Positions 1 through 22,007 of a DNA stretch of 64,000 nucleotides are shown in pieces; positions within the stretch are counted from its first letter, which is position 1; every line of letters begins with the position of its first letter. The stretch lies in the NCBI GenBank assembly GCA_965601925.1, contig OZ271854.1, positions 3,008,001-3,072,000 of the forward strand. Direction: 5' to 3'. Made by a program: the position numbers and the translations under genes. Source of the stretch: Alkalispirochaeta sp. Its GTDB lineage: Bacteria; Spirochaetota; Spirochaetia; DSM-27196; Alkalispirochaetaceae. The notes under the pieces were generated by a model. It was not told the origin of the DNA and ran no database searches. It saw only the letters and a list, made by a program, of their open reading frames with translations.

Positions 1-849
1 GGCTTCTCGTTGGGACCCTTGTTCCAGTTGCGGATGCTGTGGGCCCTGGCGATCATCGACGCTTTGGAGGATCTGCGTCTGAGACTCAGGCCGTACGAGC
101 GTGAGCAAGGGAGTATCAATCGCGCCTTCGAGGCCGGGACGGAGGCTGTCGCCGCAGCCTTGGAACATTCGATCCGCAAAGCCGTCGCCGCGTACCGCCG
201 GGCCGTCGATGCACTCTCGGCCGTGCCGCTCCGGGAGGTTCCCGACCGGCCCAAGGTCTTCGTGATCGGAGAGTTCCTGCTCAACTTTCATCCGACGAGC
301 AACTTCGACATTGTGAACTACTTAGAGGCCAACGGCATGGAGGTGATTCTCCCCAACATTCTCGACTCCTTTCGGCGCGACTTCATGCGCATGAAGACCG
401 AGCGCAAGGAGTTTTTCATCCGTTACCCGTTGGCCGACACGGTACTCGCCGGCATCACCGATACACTGTTCGACCACGTTTTGGACAAGGTCGCCTCGAT
501 AGCCGAGACAAATCCGCGGTATGAGCGCCGCGTTCCCCTACCGGAAATTGCGAAGTATTCCGAGGAGATCGTGCACCATACCTTCACCTCCGGAGAGGGG
601 TGGTTGATCGCCGGTGAGATTCTCCACCACGCGGCCCACGGCGTGCGATCCTTTCTCATTTTGCAGCCCTTCGGGTGTCTGCCCAACCATGTGACCGGGC
701 GCGGTCTCGTGAAACGGTTCAAGGAGATCCATCCCGATGCGCAGATTCTGAGTCTCGACTACGATCCCGACACGAGTTTCGCCAATATCGAAAATCGTCT
801 GCAAATGCTTATTTTGAACAGCCGCCTCGGCTCCGGCGTCACGCCGTAG
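1..849 (+). CDS. C-terminal part (5' truncated by window) of a CoA-activase/2-hydroxyacyl-CoA dehydratase-related protein, PlsA/PlsR/Ger-like
   Basis: Frame open from base 1. Motifs RLRPYE, KVFVIGEF, GEGWLIAGE, QPFGCLPNHVTGRG and LSLDYD..S.ANIENRLQML match the C-terminal reductase-like domain of this family. Confidence 0.8.
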   Translation, partial: GFSLGPLFQLRMLWALAIIDALEDLRLRLRPYEREQGSINRAFEAGTEAVAAALEHSIRKAVAAYRRAVDALSAVPLREVPDRPKVFVIGEFLLNFHPTSNFDIVNYLEANGMEVILPNILDSFRRDFMRMKTERKEFFIRYPLADTVLAGITDTLFDHVLDKVASIAETNPRYERRVPLPEIAKYSEEIVHHTFTSGEGWLIAGEILHHAAHGVRSFLILQPFGCLPNHVTGRGLVKRFKEIHPDAQILSLDYDPDTSFANIENRLQMLILNSRLGSGVTP

Positions 850-928
850 TCTCTGTCAAACAGGCGTCTGCGTCGTGTGTCACGGTGCCGCCGTCGGTGA
901 ATGCGTCGCCCCCCTCTACGGGAAGCGG

Positions 929-957
929 TTGCCGTCACGCGTCCCGAGCGCTACACT
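929..957 (+). promoter_or_regulatory. sigma70-type promoter of pgmB, probably leaderless
   Basis: TTGCCG-17 nt-TACACT, ATG 7 nt downstream, no SD. Confidence 0.55.
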
Positions 958-964
958 GCCTTGC

Positions 965-1618
965 ATGAAGGCCGTACTATTCGATCTCGACGGCGTCGTC
1001 GTCTACACCGACGCCTATCACTATCGAGCGTGGAAGCGTCTCGCGGATGAGGAAGGATGGCGTTTCGACGAGACGCAGAACGATCGGCTGCGAGGTGTCT
1101 CGCGCCTCGCTTCGCTGCAGATCATCCTCGATCTCAACGGCGTCGAGCTTACGCCGGAGCGCAAAGAGGAGCTCGCTACGCGCAAGAACGAGTATTACAA
1201 GGCGCTCCTCGAAACGATCGACGAGACGGCCCTCGTGCCCGGTGCACTCGATTTTATCCGCGCCCTTCGCCGCGAGAGTATTCTGATCGGCCTGGGTAGC
1301 AGCAGCCGCAACGCTCAGATGGTCCTGGACAAGCTCGGTATCGCGGATCTCTTCGACGCAACGGTCACCGGTCACGATATCAAACGCTCCAAGCCCGATC
1401 CCGAGATATTTCTCCTCGGGGCGCGCACGTTGGGTGTAGAGCCCGCCGAGTGCGTCGTCTTCGAGGATGCGCCGAGCGGTGTCGAGGCGGCCTTGGCCGG
1501 CGGTATGATCGCCGTCGGCTTCGGACCTACCGAGGGGCTGGACGCCGCCGATATCCTCGTCGCCTCCTACGACGGACTCGATTACGCCGAGTTTCTGCGC
1601 CGTCTCGACGCGCGTTGA
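965..1618 (+). CDS. pgmB: beta-phosphoglucomutase (HAD family)
   Basis: MKAVLFDLDGV, HYRAWK, LRGVSR, SSSRNA, KPDPEIF, VFEDA. Start moved to ATG 965. Confidence 0.85.
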   Translation: MKAVLFDLDGVVVYTDAYHYRAWKRLADEEGWRFDETQNDRLRGVSRLASLQIILDLNGVELTPERKEELATRKNEYYKALLETIDETALVPGALDFIRALRRESILIGLGSSSRNAQMVLDKLGIADLFDATVTGHDIKRSKPDPEIFLLGARTLGVEPAECVVFEDAPSGVEAALAGGMIAVGFGPTEGLDAADILVASYDGLDYAEFLRRLDAR

Positions 1619-1641
1619 CTTCCCCGCCGAGGAGGTGTTTC

Positions 1642-3051
1642 ATGGCCGATACCGCTGCCGCGCCGACGGTAGATATCGACGCGTTGGTCGAACGACAACG
1701 CACCTTTTTTCGCAGTGCCGCGACGCTGCCCCGCGCTTATCGCCTCGGTGCGCTCTCCACCCTCGCGGCGGCGATCGAGTCTCGAGAGGACGCGATCACC
1801 GATGCGCTGAAGAGCGACCTGGGAAAGGGCGCGTTCGAGGCGTACACCAGCGAGATCGCGCTTCTTTACGAGGAGATCCGTCTCGCGAGAAGGAGTCTGC
1901 GCCGCTGGATGCGTACCGAGCGCGTCTCGACACCGATCGTTCACGCGCCGGGGCGAAGTCGCATTATCCGTCGCCCCCGCGGCGTCTCGGCGGTGTTGAG
2001 CCCGTGGAACTATCCGTTTCAACTCGCCCTTGCGCCGGTCGTCGCCTCGATCGCCGCGGGCAACTGCACCATTCTCAAGCCTTCGGAGTTCGCTCCGGCT
2101 ACCTCGCGGGTCATTGCACGGATGATTCGAGAGCACTTCGACGAGGCGTATCTGGCGTGTGTGGAGGGTGCCGGTGCGCTCGCCGCCCGCCTCACCGCCG
2201 CGGAAGTGGACCACATTTTTTACACCGGAAGCACGCGCATCGGCCGTATCGTCATGCGCACCGCCGCAGAACGTCTCGTGCCGGTATCCCTTGAGCTCGG
2301 CGGCAAGTCGCCGGCAATTGTGAGTTCGACGGCGCGTATCGATGTAGCGGCGCGCAGGGTCATGTGGGGCAAGGTGTTGAACGCCGGACAGACGTGCGTC
2401 GCCCCCGACTACGTGTGCGTCCACCGAACGGTACTCGATGCGTTTCTCGACGGCCTTTCGGCGGCGTTGCACGCCTTTTACCCGAAAGGGCCGGCCGGGA
2501 CCACCGACTACGGACGCATCGTGAACGAGGCCCACTTCGACCGCCTCTCCCAACTTATGGATCGCCAGGCCGATCGGGTGAGCGCCGGAATCGGCGGGAC
2601 GAGAGATCGCGACGAGCGCTATATCGCGCCCACCGTCTACGCACCGGTCGCGTGGGACGATCCCATCATGGAAGACGAGATTTTCGGACCTCTGTTGCCC
2701 GTCATAGTCTACGACGACTTCGAGCGACTGATAGAGACGATCGCGGTACGTCCGACGCCGTTGGCGGCGTATATGTTCAGTGAGGATCGCGCCGAGATAC
2801 GACGCTTCGAGCGCCGGCTACCCTTCGGGGGCGCGACGATTAACGATACGGTGGTGCACCTGACCAATCCCAAGCTCCCGTTCGGAGGGAGCGGTCCGAG
2901 CGGCATGGGAAGTTACCACGGCGTGGCCGGTTTTCGCGAGTTCAGCCATACTGCCGCGGTTCTAAGACGCTCCTCGCGCTTCGACGTGCCGCTCAAATAT
3001 CCGCCCTACGGAGACTCTCTCAAGCTGGTTCGCCGTTTGATGAAGCCGTAA
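1642..3051 (+). CDS. NAD(P)-dependent aldehyde dehydrogenase, ALDH3/fatty-aldehyde type
   Basis: PWNYP, FYTGS, LELGGKSP, NAGQTCVAPDY, EIFGP, PFGG, C-terminal KYPPY. GGAGG SD before ATG 1642. Confidence 0.9.
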   Translation: MADTAAAPTVDIDALVERQRTFFRSAATLPRAYRLGALSTLAAAIESREDAITDALKSDLGKGAFEAYTSEIALLYEEIRLARRSLRRWMRTERVSTPIVHAPGRSRIIRRPRGVSAVLSPWNYPFQLALAPVVASIAAGNCTILKPSEFAPATSRVIARMIREHFDEAYLACVEGAGALAARLTAAEVDHIFYTGSTRIGRIVMRTAAERLVPVSLELGGKSPAIVSSTARIDVAARRVMWGKVLNAGQTCVAPDYVCVHRTVLDAFLDGLSAALHAFYPKGPAGTTDYGRIVNEAHFDRLSQLMDRQADRVSAGIGGTRDRDERYIAPTVYAPVAWDDPIMEDEIFGPLLPVIVYDDFERLIETIAVRPTPLAAYMFSEDRAEIRRFERRLPFGGATINDTVVHLTNPKLPFGGSGPSGMGSYHGVAGFREFSHTAAVLRRSSRFDVPLKYPPYGDSLKLVRRLMKP

Positions 3052-4081: not shown

Positions 4082-4170
4082 GCGCGGTAATCATACGGCA
4101 ATGACTTGAGCGTTCCAAGGCGAAGTACAATACTTACAGTACGCGTCTCGGTGGATACTGCAAAAGGAGC

Positions 4171-5331
4171 GTGTCGGTGGACTCCTATATCGTATTGGTT
4201 GATGATGAGCAGTCGATTCTCAACGCCCTCAGGCGAGAGTTGAGGAAGTGGGCCAAAGAGCGGGGGCTTCAGTTTTTTCTCGCCAACTCGGGTGAGGAGG
4301 CGCTCGAGTTTCTGGGCGAGCACTACCTCGACGTTGTTCTCCTGATGTCGGATCAGAAGATGCCGGGAGTCAAGGGACACGAGCTCCTCTCGACGTGCGC
4401 CCAGCGGTACCCCAACATCATCTTGATGATGCTGACCGGATATACCGATATCAACGACATCGTGAAGACGATCCGCGCCGGGGTGTACAGCTTCATCTTG
4501 AAACCGTGGGATCACGACGATCTGATCTACGAGGTCACCAAGGCGTACAACGTTCACGAGGCGCGGGAAAAGAACGCCGCCTATCTCAAGCGCATAAAAA
4601 ATGAAGTCTCGTTGGCGCGGGCTATCGGAGAGCGTCTGAGTCCTCGGGAGTCGCGCGCAATCGGCCCGCATCGCCTTGTGTCCTACACTGCCCATTCCGC
4701 CGATCATAACGGCACATCCAAAGAGTACTTTCGGTGTCTCGATACCGGCGAGCGTTTGTCGGTGATCTTCTCGATACATGTACAGGCGAATCCGGTGCAG
4801 GGAGCGCTCGTCGGTGCCACCGCCGCGCTGGAGCTTCAGCGGGCGGTATTGGAACCGGCCGAGGCGGAGCCGGCATCCGGCGCGCTTCTCACGAGACTCT
4901 CGAAGACCATGGACGAGGTCTTTACGGTGCAACCCGACCTCCTCGTGGGAATGTCTCTTGCAGTGTTCGATCGAGAGAGCGGGACACTCACCTTCAGTGC
5001 CGAGGGATATCCGCCCTGGGTGCTTATCCGCTCCGACGGGTTCGCCGAAATCGAACCTACCGACGCCTCGGCGGGCGAGTTGGAAGAGCAAACGGTACGT
5101 CTCGACAGCGGCGATATCGTCGCTATACCGGGGCCGGGGCTTCGGGAGGTGTTGGTGGACACCGAGGACGATCCGCGACCGTCACGCAGCCTCGCCCGTT
5201 TGGTGCGCGAGCATCTGGAACGCGAGAGCCCCGAGGAGGCGTGTCGCGCCATCTGTGACGATTCCGGCGCCGAAGACGGTACCCCCCGGGGCGCCACCGA
5301 TCGAAGTCTCGCGCTTCTCATGGTGCAATGA
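4171..5331 (+). CDS. Response regulator (REC) with a degenerate SpoIIE/PP2C-like C-terminal domain
   Basis: LVDDE, SDQKMP, LTGY, ILKPW. C-terminal FDRESGTLTFSAEGYPP and LDSGDIV resemble SpoIIE. AAGGAG SD before GTG. Confidence 0.75.
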   Translation: MSVDSYIVLVDDEQSILNALRRELRKWAKERGLQFFLANSGEEALEFLGEHYLDVVLLMSDQKMPGVKGHELLSTCAQRYPNIILMMLTGYTDINDIVKTIRAGVYSFILKPWDHDDLIYEVTKAYNVHEAREKNAAYLKRIKNEVSLARAIGERLSPRESRAIGPHRLVSYTAHSADHNGTSKEYFRCLDTGERLSVIFSIHVQANPVQGALVGATAALELQRAVLEPAEAEPASGALLTRLSKTMDEVFTVQPDLLVGMSLAVFDRESGTLTFSAEGYPPWVLIRSDGFAEIEPTDASAGELEEQTVRLDSGDIVAIPGPGLREVLVDTEDDPRPSRSLARLVREHLERESPEEACRAICDDSGAEDGTPRGATDRSLALLMVQ

Positions 5332-7046
5332 AGAGGTTCGAGACGGGGGCGTTCCAGGCGTTCCTTCGGACACTTCCCGATCCGTGCGTCGTGCGCGGCG
5401 AGGATGGTCGTATCGTAGGATGTAACGAGTTGGCCGAGCGACTTTTCGGTCGGTCCGCGCCCGAGCTCCTCCGGTGCCGTCTCACGGACCTCGTATCGAA
5501 ATCGGCGAGACGGCAGTGGCGGTACGCCGACGAGGTGTGTTTACGCGGCGAGAAGGTCATTAAGTTTTCCGTCTCGATGCCCGGACCGTCCGGAACGGTG
5601 CGCGTTCTGGCGGTGCGACAGCGTCGGTCGGTAGATGCTGCGGGCGCGGCGGTACTCGTATCCACCTTGCGAGAGGCCACCGTAGAGCACGAGATTCGGC
5701 ACGAACTCAATCAGCGCGAGCAGTTCGAAGGTATTCTCCTCGGTATCACATCGGAGTTCGTTAATCGAAGCTCGCGGGAGGTCGCACACTCCTTCTCCGG
5801 TGTTCTCGCCGCTGTGGCCCAAGCCCTCGGTGCCGGTGTCGGGCTCTTTTTCGCCTACGACCGAACGCATCACAACTTGGAACCGGAGAGTGCGTGGGTC
5901 GTAGACGGAGACCCGGATGAGCTGGTCGCGAACATCGGCGCGATAGAGACCGGCGAGCTACCGTGGTGGGAGCCGATCGGCCGTCAGGATACGTCGCGAG
6001 AGTCGAACACGCACATTTCGTTTCTTGATGCTCGGTACACCTCCTACGCGGTGTATCCCGTGCATACCCAATACGAGACCCTGGGAGCGCTCTTCTTTGC
6101 TTCGACTGAGGACGAGGTCGTACGGCGTTACGATGAGAGCCTCCATGTGATGAAAGTCGTCGCGCTCCTGTTCGCCAACGTTCTGGCGCGGCGCGAGATC
6201 GAAAAGTTGCTTAACAACTACTCCATCAATCTCGAAAAGAAGGTCCAGGAGCGGACGCAGGATCTGAACGTCGCCTACGAAACGCTCAAGCAAACGCAGA
6301 GTCAACTCCTGCAGGCCGGCAAGATGGCCTCCATCGGCCAACTCGCCGCCGGCGTGGCGCACGAAATCAACAATCCCGTAGGATTCGTCAAGAGCAATCT
6401 TCACAGCCTGCGGGAGTATGCCGATGACTTGCGAAAAACGATGGGAGAGGGGCACGACGAGCTGTTGGACGAGATGGACGAGATCATCGCCGAAAGTATC
6501 GAGGGAACGCGCCGCGTCGACTCGATTGTAAAGAATCTACGCACCTTTTCACGCATGGATCGCGGAGACAGGAGCCTCGGGAACATTAACGATCTTCTGG
6601 AAAATACGCTGACGGTCATTTGGAACGAGTTGAAATACAAAGCCGACGTCGTCAAAGAGTACGGTGAGATTCCGGAAATATACTGTTCTATCGATCAGCT
6701 GAATCAGGTGTTCGTTAATCTGCTGGTAAACGCGGCACAGGCTATCGAAGAGAAGGGGGAAATACGGATCAATACGGGCCTTGACGAGGGGGTAGTGATG
6801 ATCCAGATCGCCGATACCGGCCACGGCATAGAACCGAATAACCTGGAGCGCATATTCGACCCCTTCTTCACGACCAAAGACGTCGGGCAGGGCACCGGAT
6901 TGGGACTCTCGATCGTCTACGACATCATTCGCGCCCACCACGGCACGATCTCCGTGGACAGCACTCCCGGTGAGGGCACCGTGTTTACGATCAGTCTGCC
7001 CACCGATGCCCGGCCGTCCGATCGACTTTCCGACGCAGTCCTGTAG
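5328..7046 (+). CDS. PAS/GAF sensor histidine kinase (NtrB-like HisKA-HATPase)
   Basis: KMASIGQLAAGVAHEINNP H-box, QVFVNLLVNA, DTGHG, FDPFFTTK, GTGLGLS. ATGA overlap with the response regulator. Confidence 0.9.
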   Translation: MKRFETGAFQAFLRTLPDPCVVRGEDGRIVGCNELAERLFGRSAPELLRCRLTDLVSKSARRQWRYADEVCLRGEKVIKFSVSMPGPSGTVRVLAVRQRRSVDAAGAAVLVSTLREATVEHEIRHELNQREQFEGILLGITSEFVNRSSREVAHSFSGVLAAVAQALGAGVGLFFAYDRTHHNLEPESAWVVDGDPDELVANIGAIETGELPWWEPIGRQDTSRESNTHISFLDARYTSYAVYPVHTQYETLGALFFASTEDEVVRRYDESLHVMKVVALLFANVLARREIEKLLNNYSINLEKKVQERTQDLNVAYETLKQTQSQLLQAGKMASIGQLAAGVAHEINNPVGFVKSNLHSLREYADDLRKTMGEGHDELLDEMDEIIAESIEGTRRVDSIVKNLRTFSRMDRGDRSLGNINDLLENTLTVIWNELKYKADVVKEYGEIPEIYCSIDQLNQVFVNLLVNAAQAIEEKGEIRINTGLDEGVVMIQIADTGHGIEPNNLERIFDPFFTTKDVGQGTGLGLSIVYDIIRAHHGTISVDSTPGEGTVFTISLPTDARPSDRLSDAVL

Positions 7047-7075
7047 ATCCGAGGCGCGTCGGCGACCGGGTGAGG

Positions 7076-7755: not shown

Positions 7756-7798
7756 TGATCCGGTCGAACTGAAGTGTGCGGCGCACAGTCGATTTTTC

Positions 7799-7860
7799 TT
7801 GACGAGACCGACATTCAGTTTGATAATACTGATGAAACGTTTCATGAAACGTTTCATCAG
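7799..7860 (+). promoter_or_regulatory. sigma70 promoter plus tandem LacI-family operator
   Basis: TTGACG-17-GATAAT followed by the perfect 32-bp palindrome CTGATGAAACGTTTCATGAAACGTTTCATCAG (7829-7860). Confidence 0.85.
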
Positions 7861-7920
7861 AAATCGGTAATTTCGATGCGTACCGTCGGTATGCGCGTTT
7901 CTGCCGACGGCGAGGAGTAT

Positions 7921-8934
7921 ATGACCCGAAGGATTACGATCAGAGACATCGCCAAACACGCCGGGGTATCGGTAGGTACGGTCTCCAACGTCCTCAATGA
8001 ACGGCCCAAGGTCGACGAGACGCTCCGGGACCGGGTGCGCACTGCCGTGGCGGAGTTGAACTATCGTGTGAATGTCCACGCCCGGGGCATGATCCTGCGT
8101 CGTAGCTTCAACATCGGTGTCGTTATCCCCTCGTTGACCGATCCGTTCTTCCCGCAGTTCGCGTCGTCCCTCGAACAGGCGATCGAAGATCGGGGGTCTC
8201 ACGTCATCATCGCCTCATCTCGCAGCGATGCGTCGCGCGAACGGGCGGTGTGCGAATCCCTCGTCGCAAAGCAGATTGACGGTCTCATCCTCACGCCCTG
8301 TTGCCGGGAGAACTGCGAATACTTCAACGGCTTGGTTGCCGACGGGCTCCCGATCGTGCAACTCGGGCGCTACTTTGAGGAGATTCACGCTCCAATCGTC
8401 AGGGCGGAGAACTTCGAGACCGGGCGGGCGGTCGTCGAACGCCTCTATCGTCTCGGACATCGCCGGATATTGCACCTCGCGGGTGTACCCGACAGCAATC
8501 CGGACATCGAACGGGCGCGGGGTTTTCGAGAAACGGTTGCGACCCTCGGTATCCGATCGGGGTGTACCGTCCTCGACGCCGACGACCCGATGTGGCGGGA
8601 GCGTATCACTCGGCTGTTCGCCTCCGACGATCCGCCGACCGCCGTGTTCGCCGTAGACGACCTGATCGCGTTCTCGTTTCTCAAGCTCGCGCGTCGGCTC
8701 GGGGTCGAGGTGCCGAGCGACGCGTCCCTCGTCTCCGTCGGACCCTTCTTTCCCCCTGAAGCCATGGTGATGGACCTCAGTACCTATACACTCGATCCGA
8801 AGCATATGAGCGGCGCTGCGTCCGAACTCCTGTTCTCCCGGATCGACGGAACGGATTCGGGTGCGGCGGATCGCGCGACCGGCGTTGTGGCTCCTACGCT
8901 CTACGTTGAAGGAGAGACAACCCAATCGTTGTAG
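7921..8934 (+). CDS. LacI-family transcriptional regulator
   Basis: TIRDIAKHAGVSVGTVSNVLN HTH and periplasmic-binding-like core. GAGGAG SD before ATG 7921. Confidence 0.93.
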   Translation: MTRRITIRDIAKHAGVSVGTVSNVLNERPKVDETLRDRVRTAVAELNYRVNVHARGMILRRSFNIGVVIPSLTDPFFPQFASSLEQAIEDRGSHVIIASSRSDASRERAVCESLVAKQIDGLILTPCCRENCEYFNGLVADGLPIVQLGRYFEEIHAPIVRAENFETGRAVVERLYRLGHRRILHLAGVPDSNPDIERARGFRETVATLGIRSGCTVLDADDPMWRERITRLFASDDPPTAVFAVDDLIAFSFLKLARRLGVEVPSDASLVSVGPFFPPEAMVMDLSTYTLDPKHMSGAASELLFSRIDGTDSGAADRATGVVAPTLYVEGETTQSL

Positions 8935-8985
8935 GAACTTTCCGATGTGATCGGCAAGAAACGTACCAAAAGGAGGAGACGGCGT

Positions 8986-10260: not shown

Positions 10261-10345
10261 AGTCGGAATGGTCCGTCGGTCGAACACGCGCCCGTGCGGC
10301 GTCGATCGGCGGAGCGTCGTCGAATAGGCCGAACAGGGGCGTAGC

Positions 10346-12075: not shown

Positions 12076-12133
12076 GAGACGGGTCCGACGCACGCCTACG
12101 GGAGTAGAACCGAAAACGGGGAAAGGGATAGAT

Positions 12134-13585
12134 ATGGCGCAACCGAACATCGTCCTGCTGCTGGCCGACGACATGGGCTACGGCGACATCAGTCACTACG
12201 GAACGTCTCGATTCGCCACACCGAACATGGACTATGTGGCGCGTCGCGGCATGACGTTCACCGATATGCACTCGACCTCCGCGGTGTGTACGCCGAGTCG
12301 CTATGGTCTTCTCACGGGACGCTACTGTTGGCGTACATGGCTGCAGAGTTTCGTCCTCGGAGGGTTCGGTGCCCCACTGATCGAACCCCAGCGACCGACG
12401 TTGGCGTCGGTGCTCAAAGGCGTGGGGTATCGCACCGCGGCGGTCGGCAAGTGGCACTTGGGTCTCGAATGGTACACCCGGGGCGGCGCGCCGCTACGGG
12501 AGAGTGACCGCGACGGCTGGAATACCGATGGGTTCGATGTCGACTACGAGCGCGGCTTCGGCGGCGGTCCGTGCGCCCTCGGGTTCGATAGCTGGTTCGG
12601 TATCTCCGGATCGCTCGATATGCCGCCGTACTGCTACCTTCGGGACGATCGCGTGCCGACCATACCGGAGGAAGAGAAGCGGACGTACTACGCCCAACAG
12701 CGTAGAGGGTTGGCTGCGGATGGGTTCGACGACTATCGCGTCGACCTGGACTTCGCCGATCGCGCCGAGGCGATCATCGATCGGCACGCGGCGGCGCACT
12801 CGGACGAGCCGCTTTTCCTGTACTTCGCCACGCCGGCGCCCCATCGCCCGTGCCTCCCTCCTGCCTGGCTCAAGGGGCGTTCCGGCGCCGGGCACCGGGG
12901 GGACATGGTGTTGATGGTCGATCACATCGTCGGGCGTCTGACCGCCGCGCTGGGACGAAACGGGATGGTTGAGGACACGATCTTCATTGTCACGAGCGAC
13001 AACGGCGGCCGCCTGACAAATTACGACGGTAGGGACTACGGACACAAAACGAACGGCGACCTCCGGGGACAGAAGGGTGACATCTACGACGGGGGCCATC
13101 GGGAACCGTTCCTGCTCATGTGGCCGCGGATAGTCGCGCCGGGATCCCGGTGTGACGAGCTACTCTCCCTGGCCGACGTTATGGCGACCTGTGCGGAGCT
13201 GGTCGGCGCTCCCATATCCGACGACGCGGCTGAGGACAGTCGGAGTTTTCTGCGGCTGCTTCAGGGGCAACCTTCCGATGAGCCCATCCACGAGGCCGTC
13301 ATCCACCACGCCCTCGACGGGATGTTTGCCGTGCGTATGGGCCCCTGGAAGGCGGTTCTTGGGATGGGGTCCGGTGGATTCAGCGAGCCCCGCCGATACA
13401 CTCCCGGCGACGGTGAGCCGGAGGGACAGTTGTTCCACATCGTCGACGACATCCGCGAAACAAACAACCTGTGGAAGAGTCGGCCGGACGTTGTAGACCG
13501 TTTGAGAGCGATATTGGATCGTTATCAACGGGACGGACGGAGCAGGCCGACGTATCCGTTGCGGAGCGACCGGCAAAGCCTTTGA
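12134..13585 (+). CDS. Arylsulfatase (formylglycine-dependent S1 sulfatase), cytoplasmic
   Basis: PNIVLLLADDMGYGD, CTPSRYGLLTGRY (CxPxR), VGKWHLG, TSDNG, KGDIYDGGHREP. Confidence 0.92.
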   Translation: MAQPNIVLLLADDMGYGDISHYGTSRFATPNMDYVARRGMTFTDMHSTSAVCTPSRYGLLTGRYCWRTWLQSFVLGGFGAPLIEPQRPTLASVLKGVGYRTAAVGKWHLGLEWYTRGGAPLRESDRDGWNTDGFDVDYERGFGGGPCALGFDSWFGISGSLDMPPYCYLRDDRVPTIPEEEKRTYYAQQRRGLAADGFDDYRVDLDFADRAEAIIDRHAAAHSDEPLFLYFATPAPHRPCLPPAWLKGRSGAGHRGDMVLMVDHIVGRLTAALGRNGMVEDTIFIVTSDNGGRLTNYDGRDYGHKTNGDLRGQKGDIYDGGHREPFLLMWPRIVAPGSRCDELLSLADVMATCAELVGAPISDDAAEDSRSFLRLLQGQPSDEPIHEAVIHHALDGMFAVRMGPWKAVLGMGSGGFSEPRRYTPGDGEPEGQLFHIVDDIRETNNLWKSRPDVVDRLRAILDRYQRDGRSRPTYPLRSDRQSL

Positions 13586-14738: not shown

Positions 14739-15161
14739 GTGGCCCCCAAGCTGAGAAAGAGCAAACAACGCGATCGCATACTCACACTTCTCCAGTCGCA
14801 GCGCGTGCATGTGACGGCAAACTGGTTGTACGATCAGCTCCGAGTCGACTTTCCGACCCTCAGTTTGGGCAACGTGTACCGGAATCTCAACATTCTCGTT
14901 GAGCAAGGCCTTATAAACCGTCTCGGTTTCGGAAGTACTTTCGACGTATACGAGGCCAAGCGCGAGCCGCATTACCACTTCGTCTGCGACTCCTGCGGCA
15001 CGATCGAAGATGTGCATACACCCAAAGAGCTCCAGGAAGAGGTCGGGCGGTGGGTCGAGCAGCAAGAGGGGCACGTGATTTCCAGCACGACGGTGGAGTT
15101 CCACGGTATCTGCCGTCGGTGCCGTAAGAAGGAAGAGATCGCCGGCAACGACGATTTGTAG
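14739..15161 (+). CDS. Fur/PerR-family transcriptional repressor
   Basis: SKQRDRIL, HVTA, LSLGNVYRNL, HYHFVCDSCG, GICRRC. Confidence 0.92.
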   Translation: MAPKLRKSKQRDRILTLLQSQRVHVTANWLYDQLRVDFPTLSLGNVYRNLNILVEQGLINRLGFGSTFDVYEAKREPHYHFVCDSCGTIEDVHTPKELQEEVGRWVEQQEGHVISSTTVEFHGICRRCRKKEEIAGNDDL

Positions 15162-15191
15162 CCACGACACGTGCGCTCCTTGCAACGCGTT

Positions 15192-15575
15192 TCATCCGTT
15201 TGTCTTTCTGATGTGTCCTCCCGTGTAGACTCGCCCCGACCGAGCTTCCGTATAGGTGATGAATAGATTGCCGTTCAGACCGAGTGAGTCCGAGAGAGAG
15301 CGTGAGATCTCCTCAATGACCGCTGCGATCTGTCCGTCGTCTTTTCCTTCAAAGGCGATGATATCCACGAGGGGAGGGTGCGTGCTTTTCGGCTGAGCGA
15401 ATGCGGGATCGGCCCCCTCCACGTAGAATCCCGGCCGTATCTCGTCCCACGTTGCCCACACCCGGCTCGCGCGGCAGCCGTAAACGCGAGCGACATCAAC
15501 GCATACTGCGGTAAGGGCGGCTTGAATGTCACACCCGGCGTGCTGGGGGAGCCCTCTGATCCGTATGACCGGCAT
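15192..15575 (-). CDS. Tautomerase/MIF-superfamily-like protein
   Basis: Starts Met-Pro (MPVIRI) after a GGAGGAG SD. 127 aa with a twofold beta-alpha-beta-like pattern. Confidence 0.6.
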   Translation of the reverse strand: MPVIRIRGLPQHAGCDIQAALTAVCVDVARVYGCRASRVWATWDEIRPGFYVEGADPAFAQPKSTHPPLVDIIAFEGKDDGQIAAVIEEISRSLSDSLGLNGNLFITYTEARSGRVYTGGHIRKTNG

Positions 15576-15690
15576 GTTTCTCCTCCCCTCGTATTGTACC
15601 CCCTTCGTTCCGAGTGCACCGTACACTCGATATCGGCCCCGTGGAGAAATAGCTTTTCCGGCCGACGACACAGTGCTACCTTGTGTAGTA

Positions 15691-16893
15691 ATGGCAAATA
15701 CACTGGATGCTTCCGTCGGCTTCTATCGTTCCCTCGACCCCGTCTTGTCATTCGATCACGTTTTGGATAGCACGCGCTATCGACCGGTTCCCGACGACTG
15801 GTTCGTCGCAATCACCGACGTCGTTGATTCGACACGGGCGATCGAAGAGGGGCGCTACAAAGAGGTGAACGCCGCCGGAGCCGTTGCCGCGGTAGCGATC
15901 GGTAACGAACTCGGTTCTCTGGAGTTTCCGTTCAGTTTCGGCGGCGACGGTATGTTTTATCTCTTGCCCGGTTCTCTCGCAGCGCGGGTGCGCGACATAC
16001 TCGCCGACACGCGCTCGGTGGTCCGCTCCGCCTACGGTCTCGAGCTGCGTGCGGGCATCGTTCCCATGGCGGACGTTCGCGCCGCCGGCCACGAGATTCG
16101 CGTCTCGAAACTCGCCGTAACGGATCGATACGTACAGGCGGTCATCGACGGAGACGGCGTCGATTTTGCCGAGTCTCGTGTGAAACACGCAAGTCTGGGC
16201 AAGCGGTATCGCATCTCGGATGATTACGTCGTGGAGAAGGGCGCAAACTTCGAGGGGTTCACGTGTCGGTGGCAAGGCATCCCCACCGAGAAGGACGAGA
16301 TCGTATCGATTATCGTGAAACCCATGGGCGACAGCGACGAGGAGCGCCGCGAGACGGTTCGACGGGCGATGGCAGAGATCACCGGGACGTTGGGAACCGA
16401 GCAGGAGTATCGTCCCCTTACCGTCGCATCTCACGATCTGAAGAGCTACGGTGACCCAAACGGCGTCGAGGCTGCCGTTCATTCCCGCGGGCGGAGCGGA
16501 ATCGTGTGGCTCTTCAATCGATTTCGCATCTGGTTTGAGTCCAACGTGTTCAAGTTTGTCGTCTCTCACAAACTATCGGTCAAAGTCGAGGGCAAGAATA
16601 TCGGACAAGCGCGCGAGGATAACGTCATGCACTCCGACTTCAGGAAGTACGACGGCACGCTTAAGCTCGTCGCCTCGACGACCTACGCCGCACGCGAACA
16701 GCTCGAGGCGGCGCTCGGCCGTCTGGAGCGGGACGGGAAGATCGTATACGGCCTTCATCGATCGGATCGCGCGCTTTTGACCTGCCTCGTACGACGGCCG
16801 AGCGTCGGTGAGGTGCATTTTGTCGATGCGGCCGACGGAGGATACGCCCTCGCGGCGCGCGCGCTCAAGGCGAAGTTGATTCAGACGCGGTAA
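15691..16893 (+). CDS. DUF3095-family protein (nucleotidyl-cyclase-like fold)
   Basis: PDDWFVAITDVVDSTRAI..GRYKEVN, FSFGGDG, GFTCRW, DFRKYDGTL, HFVDAADGGYALAA. Confidence 0.8.
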   Translation: MANTLDASVGFYRSLDPVLSFDHVLDSTRYRPVPDDWFVAITDVVDSTRAIEEGRYKEVNAAGAVAAVAIGNELGSLEFPFSFGGDGMFYLLPGSLAARVRDILADTRSVVRSAYGLELRAGIVPMADVRAAGHEIRVSKLAVTDRYVQAVIDGDGVDFAESRVKHASLGKRYRISDDYVVEKGANFEGFTCRWQGIPTEKDEIVSIIVKPMGDSDEERRETVRRAMAEITGTLGTEQEYRPLTVASHDLKSYGDPNGVEAAVHSRGRSGIVWLFNRFRIWFESNVFKFVVSHKLSVKVEGKNIGQAREDNVMHSDFRKYDGTLKLVASTTYAAREQLEAALGRLERDGKIVYGLHRSDRALLTCLVRRPSVGEVHFVDAADGGYALAARALKAKLIQTR

Positions 16894-17000
16894 AACGCAC
16901 TCGTTCACAGTATGCGCCTTGCCCGATATATGCGGGGCCTCCGGAACGCGAACCGGGGGGAGGGTGCGCGACGATTTGCCTCTGGAGCCGTCGTCCGACG

Positions 17001-17077
17001 TTGCGTTGTGCGACACGTGCGTGTAGAATAGATACGTACCAACTACAGTAACACGTGCTTCGGAGGCGTATACGTGG
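17001..17077 (+). promoter_or_regulatory. sigma70 promoter overlaid by four AYACGTR boxes at 19-bp spacing
   Basis: TTGCGT(17001)-17-TAGAAT(17024). Boxes start at 17013, 17032, 17051 and 17070. Confidence 0.65.
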
Positions 17078-17547
17078 CTCATAAGATTACTCTCACGGTC
17101 CCGGACGGCATATACCTCAAGATCGAACGGTGGAGATCGGCTTTCAACCTCTCTCGGGTCTTTCAGGAAGCGATCGAAGAGGCGATCGAACGGAAAGAGG
17201 AGTTTCAGAAGCGACTCGCCCAGGATGTGAGCCTCGCCGATGTCGTCCGCCGGTTGCGCCGAGAGAAGCGAAACTACGAACGGAAGACGTTTCGTAAGGC
17301 GGAGGAGGAGGGGCGTAGGTGGGCCTCTCACGCCCACTACGAGGACTTGGTTGTGATCGCCGGCACTCCCGTTGAGGAGATCGCCGACAATCAAACCGTT
17401 CAGATTCACGTTGCCGATGCGGTCCGCCGGCTTTCGTCGGACCACGAGCGCACCTTTCGTTCTCGTGACGCCTTCCGCGAGACGGTCGTTACCGGCTGGC
17501 ACGCGGGCGTTCGCGCCCTTTGGTCCGCCGTGGAGGATCGGTTATGA
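17074..17547 (+). CDS. Hypothetical protein with N-terminal ribbon-helix-helix-like region, probable regulator
   Basis: KITLTVPDGIY...FNLSRVFQEAIEEAI fits the RHH pattern. GGAGG SD; ATGA coupling to the next gene. Confidence 0.6.
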   Translation: MAHKITLTVPDGIYLKIERWRSAFNLSRVFQEAIEEAIERKEEFQKRLAQDVSLADVVRRLRREKRNYERKTFRKAEEEGRRWASHAHYEDLVVIAGTPVEEIADNQTVQIHVADAVRRLSSDHERTFRSRDAFRETVVTGWHAGVRALWSAVEDRL

Positions 17548-20500
17548 GTGCCGCCGGCGCCGTTCTGGGAGTCGACGTCGGTTCCGTGGCGCTCTCCGCC
17601 GTGGTTTTGGAGCGCGACGGGACGATTCGCGGTCGCCACTATGCAATCCACGAGGGCGACATCGGTAACGCCCTCAACGGTATGGAGCGGTGTCTGGATC
17701 TCTCCGACGTCACGGCGTGCGCCCTGACCGGTCGCGCCTCGCACAAGATTCAACACGACTACTTCGCCGATTCGCGCCTGGCGTGCATTCGTTCGGTCAA
17801 AGAACGTTATCCCGAAGTGCGCTCGATGCTTCTGGTCGGCGGTGAGTTTTTTTCTCTCATCCGTTTGGACGCTGAGGGGCGCTACGAGAGCGTACGGACG
17901 AACACCTCCTGCGCCGCAGGGACCGGTAGCTTTCTCGACCAACAGGCGGGCCGCCTAAACATGGCCGACAGCGCCGAGTTGAGCGCCACTGCGTTGGGCA
18001 ATACCGATCCCGTTCCTCCGGTGGCTACGCGCTGCGCGGTGTTCGCCAAGACCGATCTTATCCACGCCCAGCAGGAGGGCTACTCCCTCTCCGGCATCGC
18101 CGAGGGGCTGTGCGTGGGATTGGCGCGTAATCTGGTGGATACGCTCTTTAAGGACGCCGACATGGACGGACCGGTGCTCCTCACCGGCGGCGTTGCGCGA
18201 AACGAGGCGGTTGCTCGTCACATCGATGCGTTGGTGCCGCAGCGTATCGTCGTAGACGCCGACGGCCCGTTTCAGGGAGCGATCGGCGCGGCGTTATCCT
18301 TCCTGGACGAACGGAGCGACGGCGCCGTGACGGACGGGGTCGTCGGTACGGCCGCGTTCGACGTCGTCGATACTCACCGGGAAGAACCGTCGCGTCCGAC
18401 TCTGTCGACCGCGGCGGTCGGCTGCGAGCGTGTAACGGAACGCCACGATCACGGAGCGGTCGATCATCCCGGGAGCGCGGCCGATGTATCCGACGGTTCA
18501 GCGACGCCGTGTTCCGTTGCGGCCTTTCGTGCTCGCAGGCCGGATCGAGGCGGGTTCTATCCGCCGCTCACCCTTCGGTACTCCGACTATCCCTCGTTCG
18601 CCGCCTACAAGCGTTACGAACAGACTATAGAGGGACGGCCCGGGCAACCCTTTGTAGAGGTCGATCTCTATCGTCCGTGGGCGGAGTCGCTGGACGCCTA
18701 CCTCGGTGTAGACATCGGCTCCACGAGCACCAAAGCGGTCGTTACCGACCTACACGGCGAGGTCCTGGGCGGCTTCTACACGCGCACCGCCGGGCGGCCT
18801 CTATCCGCGGCGCAGGCGCTCTTTGATGCGATCGATGCGGCCGCCGGTGCGGAGCAATGCACGCTTGCGATTCACGGAAGTGCGACCACCGGGTCGGGGC
18901 GCAAGTTCATCGGTGAGATCATCCATGCCGACGAGGTTCTGGACGAGATCAGCGCCCACGCCCGCGCGGCGTGCGCGTTGGACCCGCGGGTCGATACGAT
19001 CTTGGAGATCGGCGGCCAGGACGCGAAGTTTACCACCCTCAAACACGGTCGCGTCACCTTGTCGGTGATGAACAACGTCTGCGCCGCCGGGACCGGCAGC
19101 TTCCTGGAAGAGCAGGCCAAACGTCTGGGTGTAGCGGTTCGCGACTATGCGCGGTATACCGCCGATATCCGCGCTCCACGGGTGAGCGACCGTTGTACGG
19201 TGTTCATGGAGCGTGATATCAACCATCTCCTCTCCGAGGGGCATACCGTGCCGGAAGTTCTGGCGGCGGCGCTCCATGCGGTACGCGAGAACTATCTGCA
19301 CAAGGTCGCGGTGGAGAAGAACATCGGTGAGGTGGTCTTTTTTCAGGGTGCCACCGCCAAAAACCGCTCTCTGGTAGCCGCGTTCGAACAGAGATTGAAT
19401 CGCCCCATCCTCGTGTCTCCCTACTGCCACCTCACCGGCGCCCTGGGTGCGGCTCTCACACTCGTCGATCGCGGTGTCGTTTCGACCGAGTTCGCGGGGC
19501 TTGATCTCCACCGCACGTCGATACCGGTCGGGCGCGAGGTCTGTCGGCTATGTGCCAACCATTGCAAACTCTCGGTGGTGGAGGTCGATGGTCGGACCGT
19601 CGCTTTCGGATTTCTCTGCGGGCGGGATTACCGGACCGAGCGGTACGTCGATCGCAATACGAGCGGTTTCGACCTTCTTACGGCGCGGCGCAATGTGGAG
19701 CGCACGCTTCAGGGAAACGTCTCGTCGGAGCCGATTGAAGAAAAGACGCTCGGCGCCGGTGCTGCCTCTCCCACGATCGGCCTTCCCGACGGCCTCTTCA
19801 TGACGGAGGATCTCGCCTACTGGCAGGTGTTCTTCCGCGTACTGGGCATCACTACCAAGACCGGTCGCGGGTTGAAGAATCCGATTCAGCGGGGTAAGCC
19901 GCTGGTGGGTGCCGAGTTCTGTGCGCCGATGTCGGCGCTCCACGGCCGGGCGGCGGCGCTCCTGGAGGAGGTCGATTATCTCTTTCTCCCGACCTACCTC
20001 GAACGCAAGCCGGAGAAGAGCGGCGCGTTGCGTAAGTTCTGCTACTTCTCGCAGTTTGCCGCGTCGTTGATCCGTTACATCGGCGACGACAAGCGCGTTC
20101 TTACGCCGCTCGCAGCCACACGCTATTCGTCCTTTCACCTCGTCGGTGAGCTCCACAAGACGCTGGGTGTGCTCGCCGACCGCCGGCCTACCATCTTGAA
20201 GATCTCGGCCGCCTTGGAAAAAGCGGACGCCTTCCGTCGCAGTCTGACGCGGTCGTTTAAAGAGCTGTATCGCGAGTATATGACCGCCGCGGATACCGTT
20301 GATGTCGTACTACTCGGCCGACCCTACTCGGTGCTGCCGAAAGAGATGAACAAAGGGATTCCCGACATTTTTTCTTCCCTCGGCGTGCGCGTCTTTTACC
20401 AAGACATGATCGACTACGAGCCGCACGATGTGGCCGCGATCGAGCCGCTTCTGCGGGAGATCAACTGGGCGTACGGCGCAAAGATTCTGGAAGCGGCGGA

Positions 20501-22007
20501 GGTTGCGGCTCGGACACCGGGACTGTATCCCGTTTTCCTAACCTCGTTCAAATGCGGTCCCGACTCCTTCATTACCGAGTACGTGAGGCGTATATTGGAC
20601 GCCCACGACAAACCGTATTTGATTCTTGAACTGGACGAGCACGATTCGGCGGTGGGATACGAGACGCGCATCGAAGCTGCGATCCGTTCGTTTCGCAATC
20701 ACATCGAGGAGGGCTCCGGGACGCGATGCGTGTCGGTTGACGGATCGAACTATCGGGGCGTTAATCCGCGCTACGTTCGCGAGCTCACGAGGGACAAGAC
20801 GCTCATTATTCCCAATTGGGACGATTACTCGATCCCTCTGATCGCCGCCGTATTGAACGGCCAGGGATACCGGACGCTCATCATGGAGGAGACCGACGAG
20901 ACCATTCGCCGGAGCCTGAGATGGAACAATGGGCAGTGCATTCCAATGAACGCTCTGGTGGAGGGGTGCGTGGCCACTATCAGGAGCCACATGGTTCAGC
21001 CGGAACGGTGCCTCCTCTGGATACCGATGGCCGCCTTTTCGTGCAACATTCGCCTCTTTCCCCACCACGTGCAGGAGATCCTCAAAGGATACGGTGATGG
21101 AATGGACAAGGTCGGCGTATATCTCGGCGACATGACCTATACCGACCTTTCGCCGGTCGTCACCGCCAACGCCTATCTGGCCTACATGTTCTCCGGCCTC
21201 ATCCGACGGATCGCCTGTCGCATTCGACCGTACGAGCACCACCCCGGAGAAACGGACGAAGTGGTACGGGAGGCGTTGGAAGTATTGAGCGGGGCGTTTC
21301 GGGACGCGGGCGGAAACAAGACGCAGGCGGTGCGAGACATCATGGATCGGTTCGAGCGTATTCCGTACGACCGCGATCGAGAACGGCCCAAGGTAGCTCT
21401 TTTCGGCGACATTTACGTCCGCGACAATCCCGTTATGAACCAGGACGTAATTCGCTATATCGAACGGAACGGCGGGGAGGTCGTTACCATGCCGTTCCAC
21501 GAGTTCACTCGCATGACCGCGAATACGTACTTTTACCGCTGGTTTCGAGAGCGGCGACTCGGGCGCCTTCTGACGTTGAAACCCCTCATGGCGGGGCTGG
21601 CTGCGATGGAGAAATGGTACTACCGTCACTTCGAGCGAGTGATTCGGGAGCCGGCTCCGCAATTTGAGGATGATCCGGCCGAAGTTCTGGGGAGATTCGG
21701 TGTGAGTATCGACCACGAGGGAGAGTCGCAGGACAATCTGCTCAAGACGTGGTACATCAGTCGACAGCACCCCGACCTGTCGCTCTTCGTCCAGCTCAAT
21801 CCGGGATTTTGCTGCGCCGGCCTGGTAACCGAGGCGATGTCAAAGAAGATTCGTGAGGTTACCGGTGTCCCGGTCCTCCCGATCACCTACGACGGTACCG
21901 GCGGCCTCAAAAACGACGCGATCCTGCCTTACTTGAGGTATCCCAGGGACGTCAAGGAGCAACGTGTCTCACCGGAAAAGCGGTCGGACACGTTACGGGT
22001 CGGCTAA
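17544..22007 (+). CDS. Multidomain CoA-activase/reductase (2x BadF/BadG ASKHA + DUF2229 + dehydratase-like), PlsA/Ger-like
   Basis: GVDVGS and GVDIGSTSTK, two CAAGTGSFL motifs, RCAVF and RCTVF, IGGQDAK, CRLCANHC, EFCAP, FKCGPD, ELDEH...GYETRIEA, GQCIP, GFCCAG. Confidence 0.85.
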   Translation: MSAAGAVLGVDVGSVALSAVVLERDGTIRGRHYAIHEGDIGNALNGMERCLDLSDVTACALTGRASHKIQHDYFADSRLACIRSVKERYPEVRSMLLVGGEFFSLIRLDAEGRYESVRTNTSCAAGTGSFLDQQAGRLNMADSAELSATALGNTDPVPPVATRCAVFAKTDLIHAQQEGYSLSGIAEGLCVGLARNLVDTLFKDADMDGPVLLTGGVARNEAVARHIDALVPQRIVVDADGPFQGAIGAALSFLDERSDGAVTDGVVGTAAFDVVDTHREEPSRPTLSTAAVGCERVTERHDHGAVDHPGSAADVSDGSATPCSVAAFRARRPDRGGFYPPLTLRYSDYPSFAAYKRYEQTIEGRPGQPFVEVDLYRPWAESLDAYLGVDIGSTSTKAVVTDLHGEVLGGFYTRTAGRPLSAAQALFDAIDAAAGAEQCTLAIHGSATTGSGRKFIGEIIHADEVLDEISAHARAACALDPRVDTILEIGGQDAKFTTLKHGRVTLSVMNNVCAAGTGSFLEEQAKRLGVAVRDYARYTADIRAPRVSDRCTVFMERDINHLLSEGHTVPEVLAAALHAVRENYLHKVAVEKNIGEVVFFQGATAKNRSLVAAFEQRLNRPILVSPYCHLTGALGAALTLVDRGVVSTEFAGLDLHRTSIPVGREVCRLCANHCKLSVVEVDGRTVAFGFLCGRDYRTERYVDRNTSGFDLLTARRNVERTLQGNVSSEPIEEKTLGAGAASPTIGLPDGLFMTEDLAYWQVFFRVLGITTKTGRGLKNPIQRGKPLVGAEFCAPMSALHGRAAALLEEVDYLFLPTYLERKPEKSGALRKFCYFSQFAASLIRYIGDDKRVLTPLAATRYSSFHLVGELHKTLGVLADRRPTILKISAALEKADAFRRSLTRSFKELYREYMTAADTVDVVLLGRPYSVLPKEMNKGIPDIFSSLGVRVFYQDMIDYEPHDVAAIEPLLREINWAYGAKILEAAEVAARTPGLYPVFLTSFKCGPDSFITEYVRRILDAHDKPYLILELDEHDSAVGYETRIEAAIRSFRNHIEEGSGTRCVSVDGSNYRGVNPRYVRELTRDKTLIIPNWDDYSIPLIAAVLNGQGYRTLIMEETDETIRRSLRWNNGQCIPMNALVEGCVATIRSHMVQPERCLLWIPMAAFSCNIRLFPHHVQEILKGYGDGMDKVGVYLGDMTYTDLSPVVTANAYLAYMFSGLIRRIACRIRPYEHHPGETDEVVREALEVLSGAFRDAGGNKTQAVRDIMDRFERIPYDRDRERPKVALFGDIYVRDNPVMNQDVIRYIERNGGEVVTMPFHEFTRMTANTYFYRWFRERRLGRLLTLKPLMAGLAAMEKWYYRHFERVIREPAPQFEDDPAEVLGRFGVSIDHEGESQDNLLKTWYISRQHPDLSLFVQLNPGFCCAGLVTEAMSKKIREVTGVPVLPITYDGTGGLKNDAILPYLRYPRDVKEQRVSPEKRSDTLRVG

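Follow-up and report, generated by a model that had tools for sequence, protein, structure and literature searches.

The closest described relatives of the genes considered here are the fused reductases of the PlsA/Ger type, whose architecture was defined in earlier work (PMC13159169, PMC12838417, PMC8788747, PMC9702350). In these papers, PlsA/PlsR of Clostridium perfringens and the fused PlsA of Enterococcus faecalis give rise to plasmalogens, and Ger of Thermotoga maritima and Desulfatibacillum alkenivorans gives rise to alkyl ethers, under anoxic conditions only. D. alkenivorans carries two paralogs, the active Ger (SHJ90043, 1458 amino acids, aa) and Ger2 (SHK01260), which are 25.9% similar to each other, and the D. 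aliphaticivorans counterpart of Ger2 has 1401 aa (PMC11150832). Ger homologues in Spirochaetes are already in the literature, and what additional paralogs of the Ger2 kind do has been described as unsettled (PMC13274423, PMC11868695). Bacterial ether lipids bear on the 'lipid divide', on palaeoclimate proxies built on branched glycerol dialkyl glycerol tetraethers (brGDGT) and on the plasmalogens of gut microbes. Here, we analysed a stretch of 64,000 nucleotides (nt) from an Alkalispirochaeta genome (GCA_965601925.1, contig OZ271854.1; G000:C1:3008001-3072000 in our numbering), called the window below, which holds one complete PlsA/Ger-type gene, P0001, and the 3' end of a second, P0003; a third, P0004, lies elsewhere in the genome. 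We consider it probable that all three encode fused, ATP-driven iron-sulfur reductases that convert esters to ethers in membrane glycerolipids under anoxic conditions, and that P0001 is a separately controlled member of the Ger2 type. The new elements are the placement of P0001 in the Ger2-type lineage and of P0003 and P0004 in the PlsA clade, together with a strictly linked ribbon-helix-helix (RHH)-like gene and a conserved, predicted operator array.

The genome is a single contig of 5.05 Mb with about 60% G+C, and the closest named relatives of the window proteins come from Alkalispirochaeta and other Spirochaetales metagenome-assembled genomes (MAGs). A whole-genome search returned three large PlsA/Ger-type genes, P0001, P0003 and P0004. 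A preliminary description, made from the letters of the window, had proposed two divergent reductases; the two subtypes were borne out, with P0003 and P0004 sharing 47% identity and either of them 25-28% with P0001, but the genome holds three paralogs and not two. The complete protein with two activase domains that it had recognised was found again as an intact open frame, whose ATG start fits the 1487-aa length of an identical public protein. Likewise, its reading of the first 849 nt as the C-terminus of a paralog proved correct. This fragment alone has no Pfam match; the full-length protein, whose gene starts 3.6 kb before the window, has the same domain set as P0001.

Each of the three proteins contains two copies of PF01869 (BcrAD_BadFG) and one PF09989 (DUF2229) above cut-off, fused in one chain. 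In addition, blastp against Ger (SHJ90043) revealed full-length homology, with E values of 1e-81 to 1e-86 for P0001 and P0003 and 4e-61 for P0004. The activase domains match the solved structures of HgdC (1hux), HadI (4eht) and MbdQ (9gai) at E 1e-25 to 1e-31, and no solved relative of the reductase halves was found at E <= 0.001. PF06050 scores 18.6 bits on P0001, under its cut-off of 28.4, and has no match on P0003 or P0004. On sequence grounds, all three paralogs are members of the PlsA/Ger family and not amino-acid-fermentation dehydratases, in agreement with the preliminary description: only the activase domains match HgdC-type activators. The 2-hydroxyacyl-CoA dehydratases (HgdC/HgdAB, HadI/HadBC) and benzoyl-CoA reductases have similar activase domains, for which ATP-driven electron injection is expected. 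However, the dehydratases use a separate activator of about 260 aa together with HgdA/HgdB-type subunits (PF06050), whereas the paralogs here are single fused chains of 1450-1500 aa. By analogy with these dehydratases and with the published PlsA/PlsR model, the activase pair would inject a low-potential electron into the clusters of the reductase halves.

The residues that would hold such clusters are conserved throughout the family. In an alignment of 83 rows, the cysteine columns C131, C172, C521, C559, C675/678/682/700, C801, C841, C1012, C1140, C1175 and C1431 are occupied in all clades, and by analogy they are the putative iron-sulfur cluster ligands. They comprise two cysteines per activase domain, a CxxCxxxC..C motif and three cysteines in each reductase half (3+3). 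Both activase domains of P0001, P0003 and P0004 retain their two cluster cysteines, and each protein has two HgdB-like halves. The letter code for Pfam architectures used in the literature was also tried as a guide to function; with sub-threshold matches it reads BBD+H+D for P0001, BBD+D for P0003 and BBD for P0004, and it did not discriminate function.

The assignment of P0001 to the Ger2 type was based on direct comparison with the two D. alkenivorans proteins. In a search with P0001 across 401 genomes, taken from the order to which a Desulfobacter locus belongs, 323 matched at 1e-60. Genomes G010 and G095 each contain a 1401-aa P0001-like frame and a second gene of 1458 aa. Protein length had served as a lead for telling Ger from Ger2 and was superseded by exact look-up, which identified the proteins of these two genomes as SHK01260.1/WP_028315991.1 and SHJ90043.1/WP_084511289.1, and our entries P0262 and P0263 as SHJ90043.1 (Ger) and SHK01260.1 (Ger2), respectively. 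P0001 is 44% identical to Ger2 over its full length (1480 columns, 1214 bits) and 27% identical to Ger; P0003 and P0004 are 24-26% identical to either. By these comparisons P0001 is an orthologue type of Ger2. Furthermore, Ger2 of D. alkenivorans (SHK01260.1/WP_073476658.1) has in common with P0001 its clade, the degenerate motifs of the first activase domain, the CN pair and the FCC end described below.

Two trees were used to place the paralogs. The first (FastTree, LG+G) comprised 83 full-length proteins and 1294 columns, with the three paralogs, Ger, Ger2, named matches, proteins from the collected loci and three PLSDB records as rows; six near-identical Collinsella rows were left out, and an earlier version had 86 rows. 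The second (IQ-TREE, quick mode) comprised 35 rows and 647 columns. P0001 falls into a Ger2-type clade (support 0.97 and 100) with SHK01260 and many proteins of Desulfobacterota, Nitrospirota, Spirochaetota and Bacteroidota. P0003 and P0004 fall into a PlsA clade with a long stem and full support (Shimodaira-Hasegawa value 1.0 in FastTree, 100 in IQ-TREE), and P0001 lies outside it. Ger itself (SHJ90043) forms a third clade with a Desulfobacterales MAG protein (genome G002) and one Marispirochaeta protein (genome G004). Therefore, the phylogeny of the paralogs with characterised enzymes, proposed in the preliminary description, joined P0001 to Ger2 and joined no paralog to the validated alkyl-ether enzyme Ger, to which each is 24-27% identical; the whole-genome search, with its three large genes, left no Ger-type member in this genome. 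Two smaller deep groups were also recovered, a sister group of the Ger2-type clade (L021, L098-L100) and a group B1 (L022, L042, L044, L083, L101-L103) with members from Armatimonadota, Clostridia and Desulfobacterales. The order of the deep branches is without resolution in either tree. The locus and its relatives give a clade map of PlsA, Ger-type and Ger2-type proteins and two smaller groups, with signatures beside the cluster cysteines, and the Ger2 type emerges as a widespread, conserved lineage. The three PLSDB records (NZ_CP030101.1, NZ_CP154629.1 and NZ_CP084075.1, from Listeria monocytogenes, Acetoanaerobium noterae and Fusobacterium vincentii) are filed as plasmids and, at 2.1-2.9 Mb, look like chromosomes; the Listeria PlsA-like gene surfaced through this plasmid-record search.

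The clades also differ in motifs. Only in the PlsA clade does the first activase domain retain canonical ATP motifs (D.GSTT.K and ELGG[QE]DAK), and P0003 and P0004 have canonical motifs in both activase domains. In Ger-type proteins the motifs of the first domain have degenerated, as they have in the Ger2-type clade (D.GSVS, VGGEkF); accordingly, P0001 has lost GSTTxK and GGQDAK from its first activase domain and has a canonical second one. Moreover, following the fifth reductase cysteine the Ger2-type clade shows CN in place of CR, and its proteins have an FCC end motif; both traits are present in P0001. The final motifs noted in the preliminary description (PFGCLPNH and PGFCCAG) were read as given, within LQPFGCLPNH of P0003 and NPGFCCAG of P0001, and in the 83-row alignment this difference is a clade signature and not chance. 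Ger of D. alkenivorans, which forms 1-O-alkyl and dialkyl glycerols experimentally, has the domain order and conserved cysteines of all three paralogs, a degenerate first activase domain like that of P0001, and an end motif (GPFGCMPNR) that resembles those of P0003 and P0004. As few tested enzymes are sampled, these signatures are not to be taken as diagnostic of the product type.

The composition of the PlsA clade indicates what P0003 and P0004 might do. One half contains Firmicutes (Clostridium, Peptacetobacter), Fusobacterium and L. monocytogenes proteins; the other contains spirochaete, Collinsella and Haliovirga proteins, including P0003 and P0004, and is sister to the Firmicutes group and not nested in it. 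Split PlsA/PlsR-type genes of the clade occur in locus L031, Fusobacterium animalis and 'Ca. Heteroruminococcus'. The L. monocytogenes protein is 35% identical to P0003 over 99% of its length. P0003 and P0004 are thus likely, as predicted from their clade, to be plasmalogen synthases that make sn-1 vinyl ethers. They resemble, by proxy, PlsA/PlsR of C. perfringens (CPE1194-1195) and the fused PlsA of E. faecalis (EF1327), L. cremoris and B. longum subsp. suis. In addition, a TetR gene (PF00440, TetR_N) precedes P0004, as at E. faecalis pls, where such a gene lies directly upstream (EF1326/EF1327), an arrangement reported for facultative anaerobes; Listeria and E. faecalis make plasmalogens anaerobically (PMC9702350). 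P0004 may therefore be under TetR control as well; no TetR gene is found directly upstream of P0003 or P0001.

The preliminary description had suggested that the two subtypes act on different sn positions or give vinyl versus alkyl ethers. That one paralog makes vinyl ethers and another alkyl ethers or sn-2 ethers is an already published hypothesis (PMC13274423, PMC11150832) and not a new inference. Under the reading favoured here, P0001 would likely carry out a second, separately controlled ester-to-ether reduction on a membrane lipid. The three paralogs could instead all be plasmalogen or ether synthases of the same chemistry, redundant except for their regulation (by oxygen, growth phase or temperature), which we regard as quite improbable. 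The regulator context does differ for each paralog (TetR for P0004, the RHH-like gene for P0001, none seen for P0003), Ger alone is reported to reduce both sn-1 and sn-2 (PMC11150832), and PlsA-type strains are reported to form small amounts of alkyl ethers too. However, the 25% identity and the clade-specific residues beside the cluster cysteines suggest different active sites. Moreover, Marispirochaeta G004 has one gene each of the Ger2-type, Ger-type and PlsA clades, and the recurrence of this trio in genomes as distant as G004 and Desulfobacterales G002 argues for non-redundant roles. The spirochaete described here, with two PlsA-clade genes, one Ger2-type gene and no Ger-type gene, offers a clean background for testing what Ger2 does and when it is made.

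Separate control of P0001 is suggested by the gene directly upstream, which encodes a protein of 157 aa and is the sole regulator candidate beside a paralog within the window (Table 1). Its homologues number 337 representatives at E <= 0.001, of which 101 remain at 1e-10. Among 54 relatives compared with Pfam at E <= 1, matches to families of the RHH clan were obtained for CcdA (16), RHH_5 (11), RHH_1 (6), VapB (4) and RHH_3 (4). The AlphaFold model of the 157-aa protein, with a mean confidence (predicted local distance difference test, pLDDT) of 92, shows an RHH-like strand-helix-helix at the N-terminus (residues 1-50) followed by a helical C-terminal domain. Alignment of residues 1-51 with RHH antitoxins by VIA-align gave Z scores of 5.0-5.1 at a root-mean-square deviation (rmsd) of 2.3-2.4, and a Foldseek search of the PDB with the whole model returned nothing at E <= 0.001. 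Fold matches of the C-terminal domain (about 100 residues) were set aside, as the best Z of 6.9 falls in the noise range for unrelated helical proteins. Taken together, the 157-aa protein is likely to be a DNA-binding regulator.

The small gene is closely linked to the Ger2 type. Of 26 genome loci, six have it in front of the Ger2-type gene (the window locus, L009, L020, L023, L065 and L114). Across 41 relatives, it was found only in the present genome and in G423, beside the Ger2-type gene in both, with an additional partial match on another contig of G423; of the 13 other relatives with a Ger2-type gene, one thus has it, and no copy was found elsewhere in the remaining genomes. A metagenome scan with a six-row alignment of the small gene yielded 39 loci, of which 7 had 174 nt or less downstream, leaving 32 informative. 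In 31 of these 32, a Ger2-type gene starts 3-383 nt downstream on the same strand; the exception, L169, has 513 nt downstream and no Ger2-type match. The dedicated regulator claimed in the preliminary description is therefore supported for the P0001 subtype, given this linkage and the RHH-family matches among relatives, and finds no such support for the other subtype. Among the matching papers listed by a literature search on glycerol ester reductase, plasmalogen synthase and PlsA, none mentions ribbon-helix-helix.

The region upstream of the small gene contains four YACGTR palindromes spaced by 19, 19 and 18 nt, the last of which overlaps the GTG start. Within the window, a sigma-70 consensus scan of 16700-17700 gave no promoter, and a repeat scan gave only the 8-nt direct repeat ACACGTGC, present twice, which alone could be due to chance. 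The motif is convincing because it recurs across loci: 45 regions upstream of small-gene relatives (including two duplicate pairs) contain 99 YACGTR sites, compared with 5.9 +/- 2.4 in total, and at most 17, in 200 shuffles, and with a background of 0.06 per 160 nt in the rest of these loci. At least two sites are present in 39 of the 45 regions, the spacing is 18-19 nt in 51 of 57 intervals, and 28 of the 45 also possess a TTGACA box overlapping the array. Furthermore, where a Ger2-type gene is without the small gene, the upstream sequence is nearly free of the motif, with 2 sites in total across 19 such regions. The array is the predicted operator of the 157-aa protein, which would act as an RHH repressor bound over its own promoter. 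In this respect the system would resemble RHH autoregulators and antitoxins (CopG, CcdA, VapB, TacA), both in the N-terminus of the protein, as judged from its modest TacA1 alignment and the Pfam matches of its relatives, and in the repeated palindromes over a TTGACA box upstream. Unlike RHH antitoxins, the 157-aa protein is not covered by a Pfam family, and what lies downstream is the gene for an enzyme of 160 kDa rather than for a toxin. The Desulfatibacillum Ger2 gene, unlike P0001, has neither the partner gene nor the array upstream. The small gene and its array provide a first regulatory handle on the Ger2-type lineage, and the role of Ger2 and the timing of its production become directly testable.

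The 157-aa protein might alternatively be an accessory subunit or an antitoxin-like binder that contacts the Ger2-type enzyme through its C-terminal helical domain, rather than a transcription factor. The ATGA overlap couples the small gene translationally to P0001, the linkage to Ger2-type genes is strict, the C-terminal domain is well conserved, and the best matches in the fold and Pfam comparisons are RHH antitoxins (TacA1, CcdA, VapB), whose C-termini bind a partner protein. Nevertheless, the protein is not an essential subunit, because most Ger2-type loci are without it and the searched genomes yielded no copy elsewhere, and the palindrome array travels with the small gene, as expected of a DNA-binding autoregulator. 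We therefore consider the subunit role improbable as a replacement for the regulatory one; the two are not mutually exclusive.

The genomic distribution and surroundings of the Ger2-type gene were also compared. P0001-type genes are patchy, with matches at 1e-100 in 14 of 41 relative genomes and in 1 of 16 other genomes of the same genus. An mlaEFD(C)A phospholipid-transport operon divergently adjoins the Ger2-type gene in nine scanned loci (L010, L020, L114, L116, L138 and L141-L144), with or without the small RHH-like gene, and a gene resembling glycolipid synthases of glycosyltransferase family 4 (GT4) lies near the Ger2-type gene of L018. Outside the Desulfobacteraceae subgroup that has the Mla linkage, Ger2-type neighbourhoods are variable. 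As separate observations, a DUF4416 gene lies near the Ger2-type gene in three related Desulfobacterales loci (L016, L111, L113), a B12-binding radical SAM gene adjoins it in L115, and a B12-binding fragment is present in L113. The DUF3095 gene directly upstream of the array was rejected as a part of the module, as it has no relative in any other fetched Ger2-type locus.

Several points weigh against the reading of the three proteins as ester-to-ether reductases with a separately controlled P0001. According to PMC11150832, Ger2 expressed in E. coli gave no ether lipids alone and no gain in diethers together with Ger. The Mla-linked loci are close kin from one Desulfobacteraceae subgroup and hence not independent. 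The trees contain no PlsA of C. perfringens, E. faecalis, L. cremoris or B. longum and no Ger of T. maritima, so that the PlsA placement is by proxy; T. maritima Ger (AGL49404), E. faecalis PlsA (Q835P9) and C. perfringens Q8XL48/Q8XL47 were not among the best 120 matches of Ger, P0001 or P0003, nor among 80 named loci of relatives. The anchor of the PlsA clade is L. monocytogenes, a species for which plasmalogens are reported, as known from the organism and not from expression of that gene. The vinyl-ether call for P0003 and P0004 is drawn from clade membership, because PlsA and Ger are said not yet to be separable by sequence (PMC13274423, PMC11868695). On the side of the regulator, the 157-aa protein of the window has no Pfam match at E <= 10 and no NCBIfam match, the RHH fold match is modest (residues 1-49 against TacA1, 7zg6_B; Z 5.1, rmsd 2.3, VIA-align), 20 of the 26 Ger2-type loci lack the small gene, and a different factor could bind the YACGTR palindromes.

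The negative Ger2 result would also be expected if P0001 and the Ger2-type clade were ATP-driven radical reductases or dehydratases for a substrate other than a membrane ester, with the PlsA/Ger scaffold retained. In line with this, the clade is 24-28% identical to Ger and PlsA, which equals the distance between Ger and PlsA, it has signatures of its own (the degenerate first ATPase domain, CN for CR and the FCC end), and its neighbourhoods vary outside one subgroup. However, every cluster cysteine and the whole domain order are kept in the clade, and the degenerate first ATPase domain is compatible with activity because the active Ger shows the same trait. The Mla operons and the GT4 gene of L018 also speak for a lipid substrate. 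As for the expression experiment, PMC11150832 states that the Ger2 protein was mostly insoluble; inclusion bodies or the lack of a cofactor were the causes its authors suspected. On balance, a substrate other than membrane ester lipids appears unlikely, and we retain the reading of P0001 as a probable membrane-lipid ester reductase. A bolder form of it, which we put forward as a speculation that is more doubtful than not, is that the Ger2 type constitutes a third class of lipid ester reductases, distinct from PlsA and Ger and controlled by an RHH repressor that reads the YACGTR array. If so, this class might supply a step for which neither PlsA nor Ger by itself accounts, for example sn-2 ether formation, saturation of vinyl ethers or action on glycolipids, and Ger2 would have failed in the published experiment for want of the right conditions rather than of a function.

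Table 1. Features of the P0001 and P0003 regions and of the P0004 locus (window positions unless another coordinate system is given).
Feature	Position	Strand	Remarks
P0003, C-terminus	1..849	+	last 282 codons; full gene 1485 aa, G000:C1:3004392-3008849
Beta-phosphoglucomutase-like haloacid dehalogenase (HAD) gene	875..1618	+	directly 3' of P0003; TIGR01990 equivalog, 231 bits (cut-off 189.4)
Class-3 aldehyde dehydrogenase	1450..3051	+	PF00171 at 1e-89; longest open reading frame
DUF3095 gene	15526..16893		directly upstream of predicted operator array
Predicted operator array	17014..17075		four YACGTR palindromes: 17014 CACGTG, 17033 TACGTA, 17052 CACGTG, 17070 TACGTG
157-aa RHH-like protein gene	17074..17547	+	GTG start; TGA overlaps P0001 ATG as ATGA
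P0001	17544..22007	+	1487-aa Ger2-type PlsA/Ger member; intact open frame 17520/17544-22007
P0004	about G000:C1:502,3xx-506,7xx		third paralog, 1457 aa, 2.5 Mb away, outside window
TetR gene (PF00440 TetR_N)	L007:12824-13414	same as P0004	about 130 nt upstream of P0004

The neighbours of P0003 were compared across the relatives. With P0003 as the query, 32 of 41 relative genomes matched at 1e-50, a count that includes cross-hits. In 15 loci of relatives, a GT4 gene adjoins the P0003 orthologue in eight, the beta-phosphoglucomutase gene follows it in six, and the class-3 aldehyde dehydrogenase (ALDH) gene follows the latter in four, all from the window's own family. The best NCBIfam match of the GT4 protein is monoglucosyl-diacylglycerol synthase at 112 bits, far under the cut-off of 400. 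In the available literature passages, no linkage of pls to GT4, beta-phosphoglucomutase and ALDH genes of the kind seen at P0003 is described. The closest solved relatives of the ALDH are 6k0z, rat ALDH3 (1ad3) and human fatty aldehyde dehydrogenase (4qgk). Its true start is probably later than position 1450, since residue 57 is the first one covered by the Pfam match and the frame overlaps the preceding gene. The preliminary description had placed an ALDH3-type gene two genes after P0003 and proposed that it recycles fatty aldehydes. The class and the position stood, with the sugar-phosphate mutase gene separating the two; the synteny is shallow, as the linkage amounts to 4 of 15 loci and a single Ger2-type locus, L017, where a related ALDH (43% identity) lies nearby. 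The enzyme may clear fatty aldehyde, a plausible breakdown or side product, and this link to P0003 is a weak one.

A gene for a spirochaete-specific protein of 674 aa lies upstream of the GT4-P0003 pair in 4 of the 15 loci. In the present genome (L006:8985-11009, G000:C1:3000985-3003009), this protein has no Pfam or NCBIfam match; in the ESM Atlas, the clusters closest to it consist of hypothetical proteins from spirochaetes, and in one of these clusters 13% of the members have Caps_assemb_Wzi. Further into the window, a fusion of a response regulator with a SpoIIE/PP2C phosphatase is followed by a PAS histidine kinase (4171-7046); these genes sit between the ALDH and Dus genes and a cluster of LacI, sugar ATP-binding cassette (ABC) transporter and sulfatase genes (7774-13585), and no link to the paralogs was seen. 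On the 3' side of P0004 (L007:4971-8223), an amino-acid permease is fused to an enzyme IIA (EIIA) domain of the phosphotransferase system (PTS), and the same region encodes a protein in which a DisA-type diadenylate cyclase domain occurs together with a PTS EIIA domain. Finally, the P0003 orthologue of a genome from the same genus (G405:C26:54996-59087) is broken by two TGA codons and one TAG codon and is probably a pseudogene.

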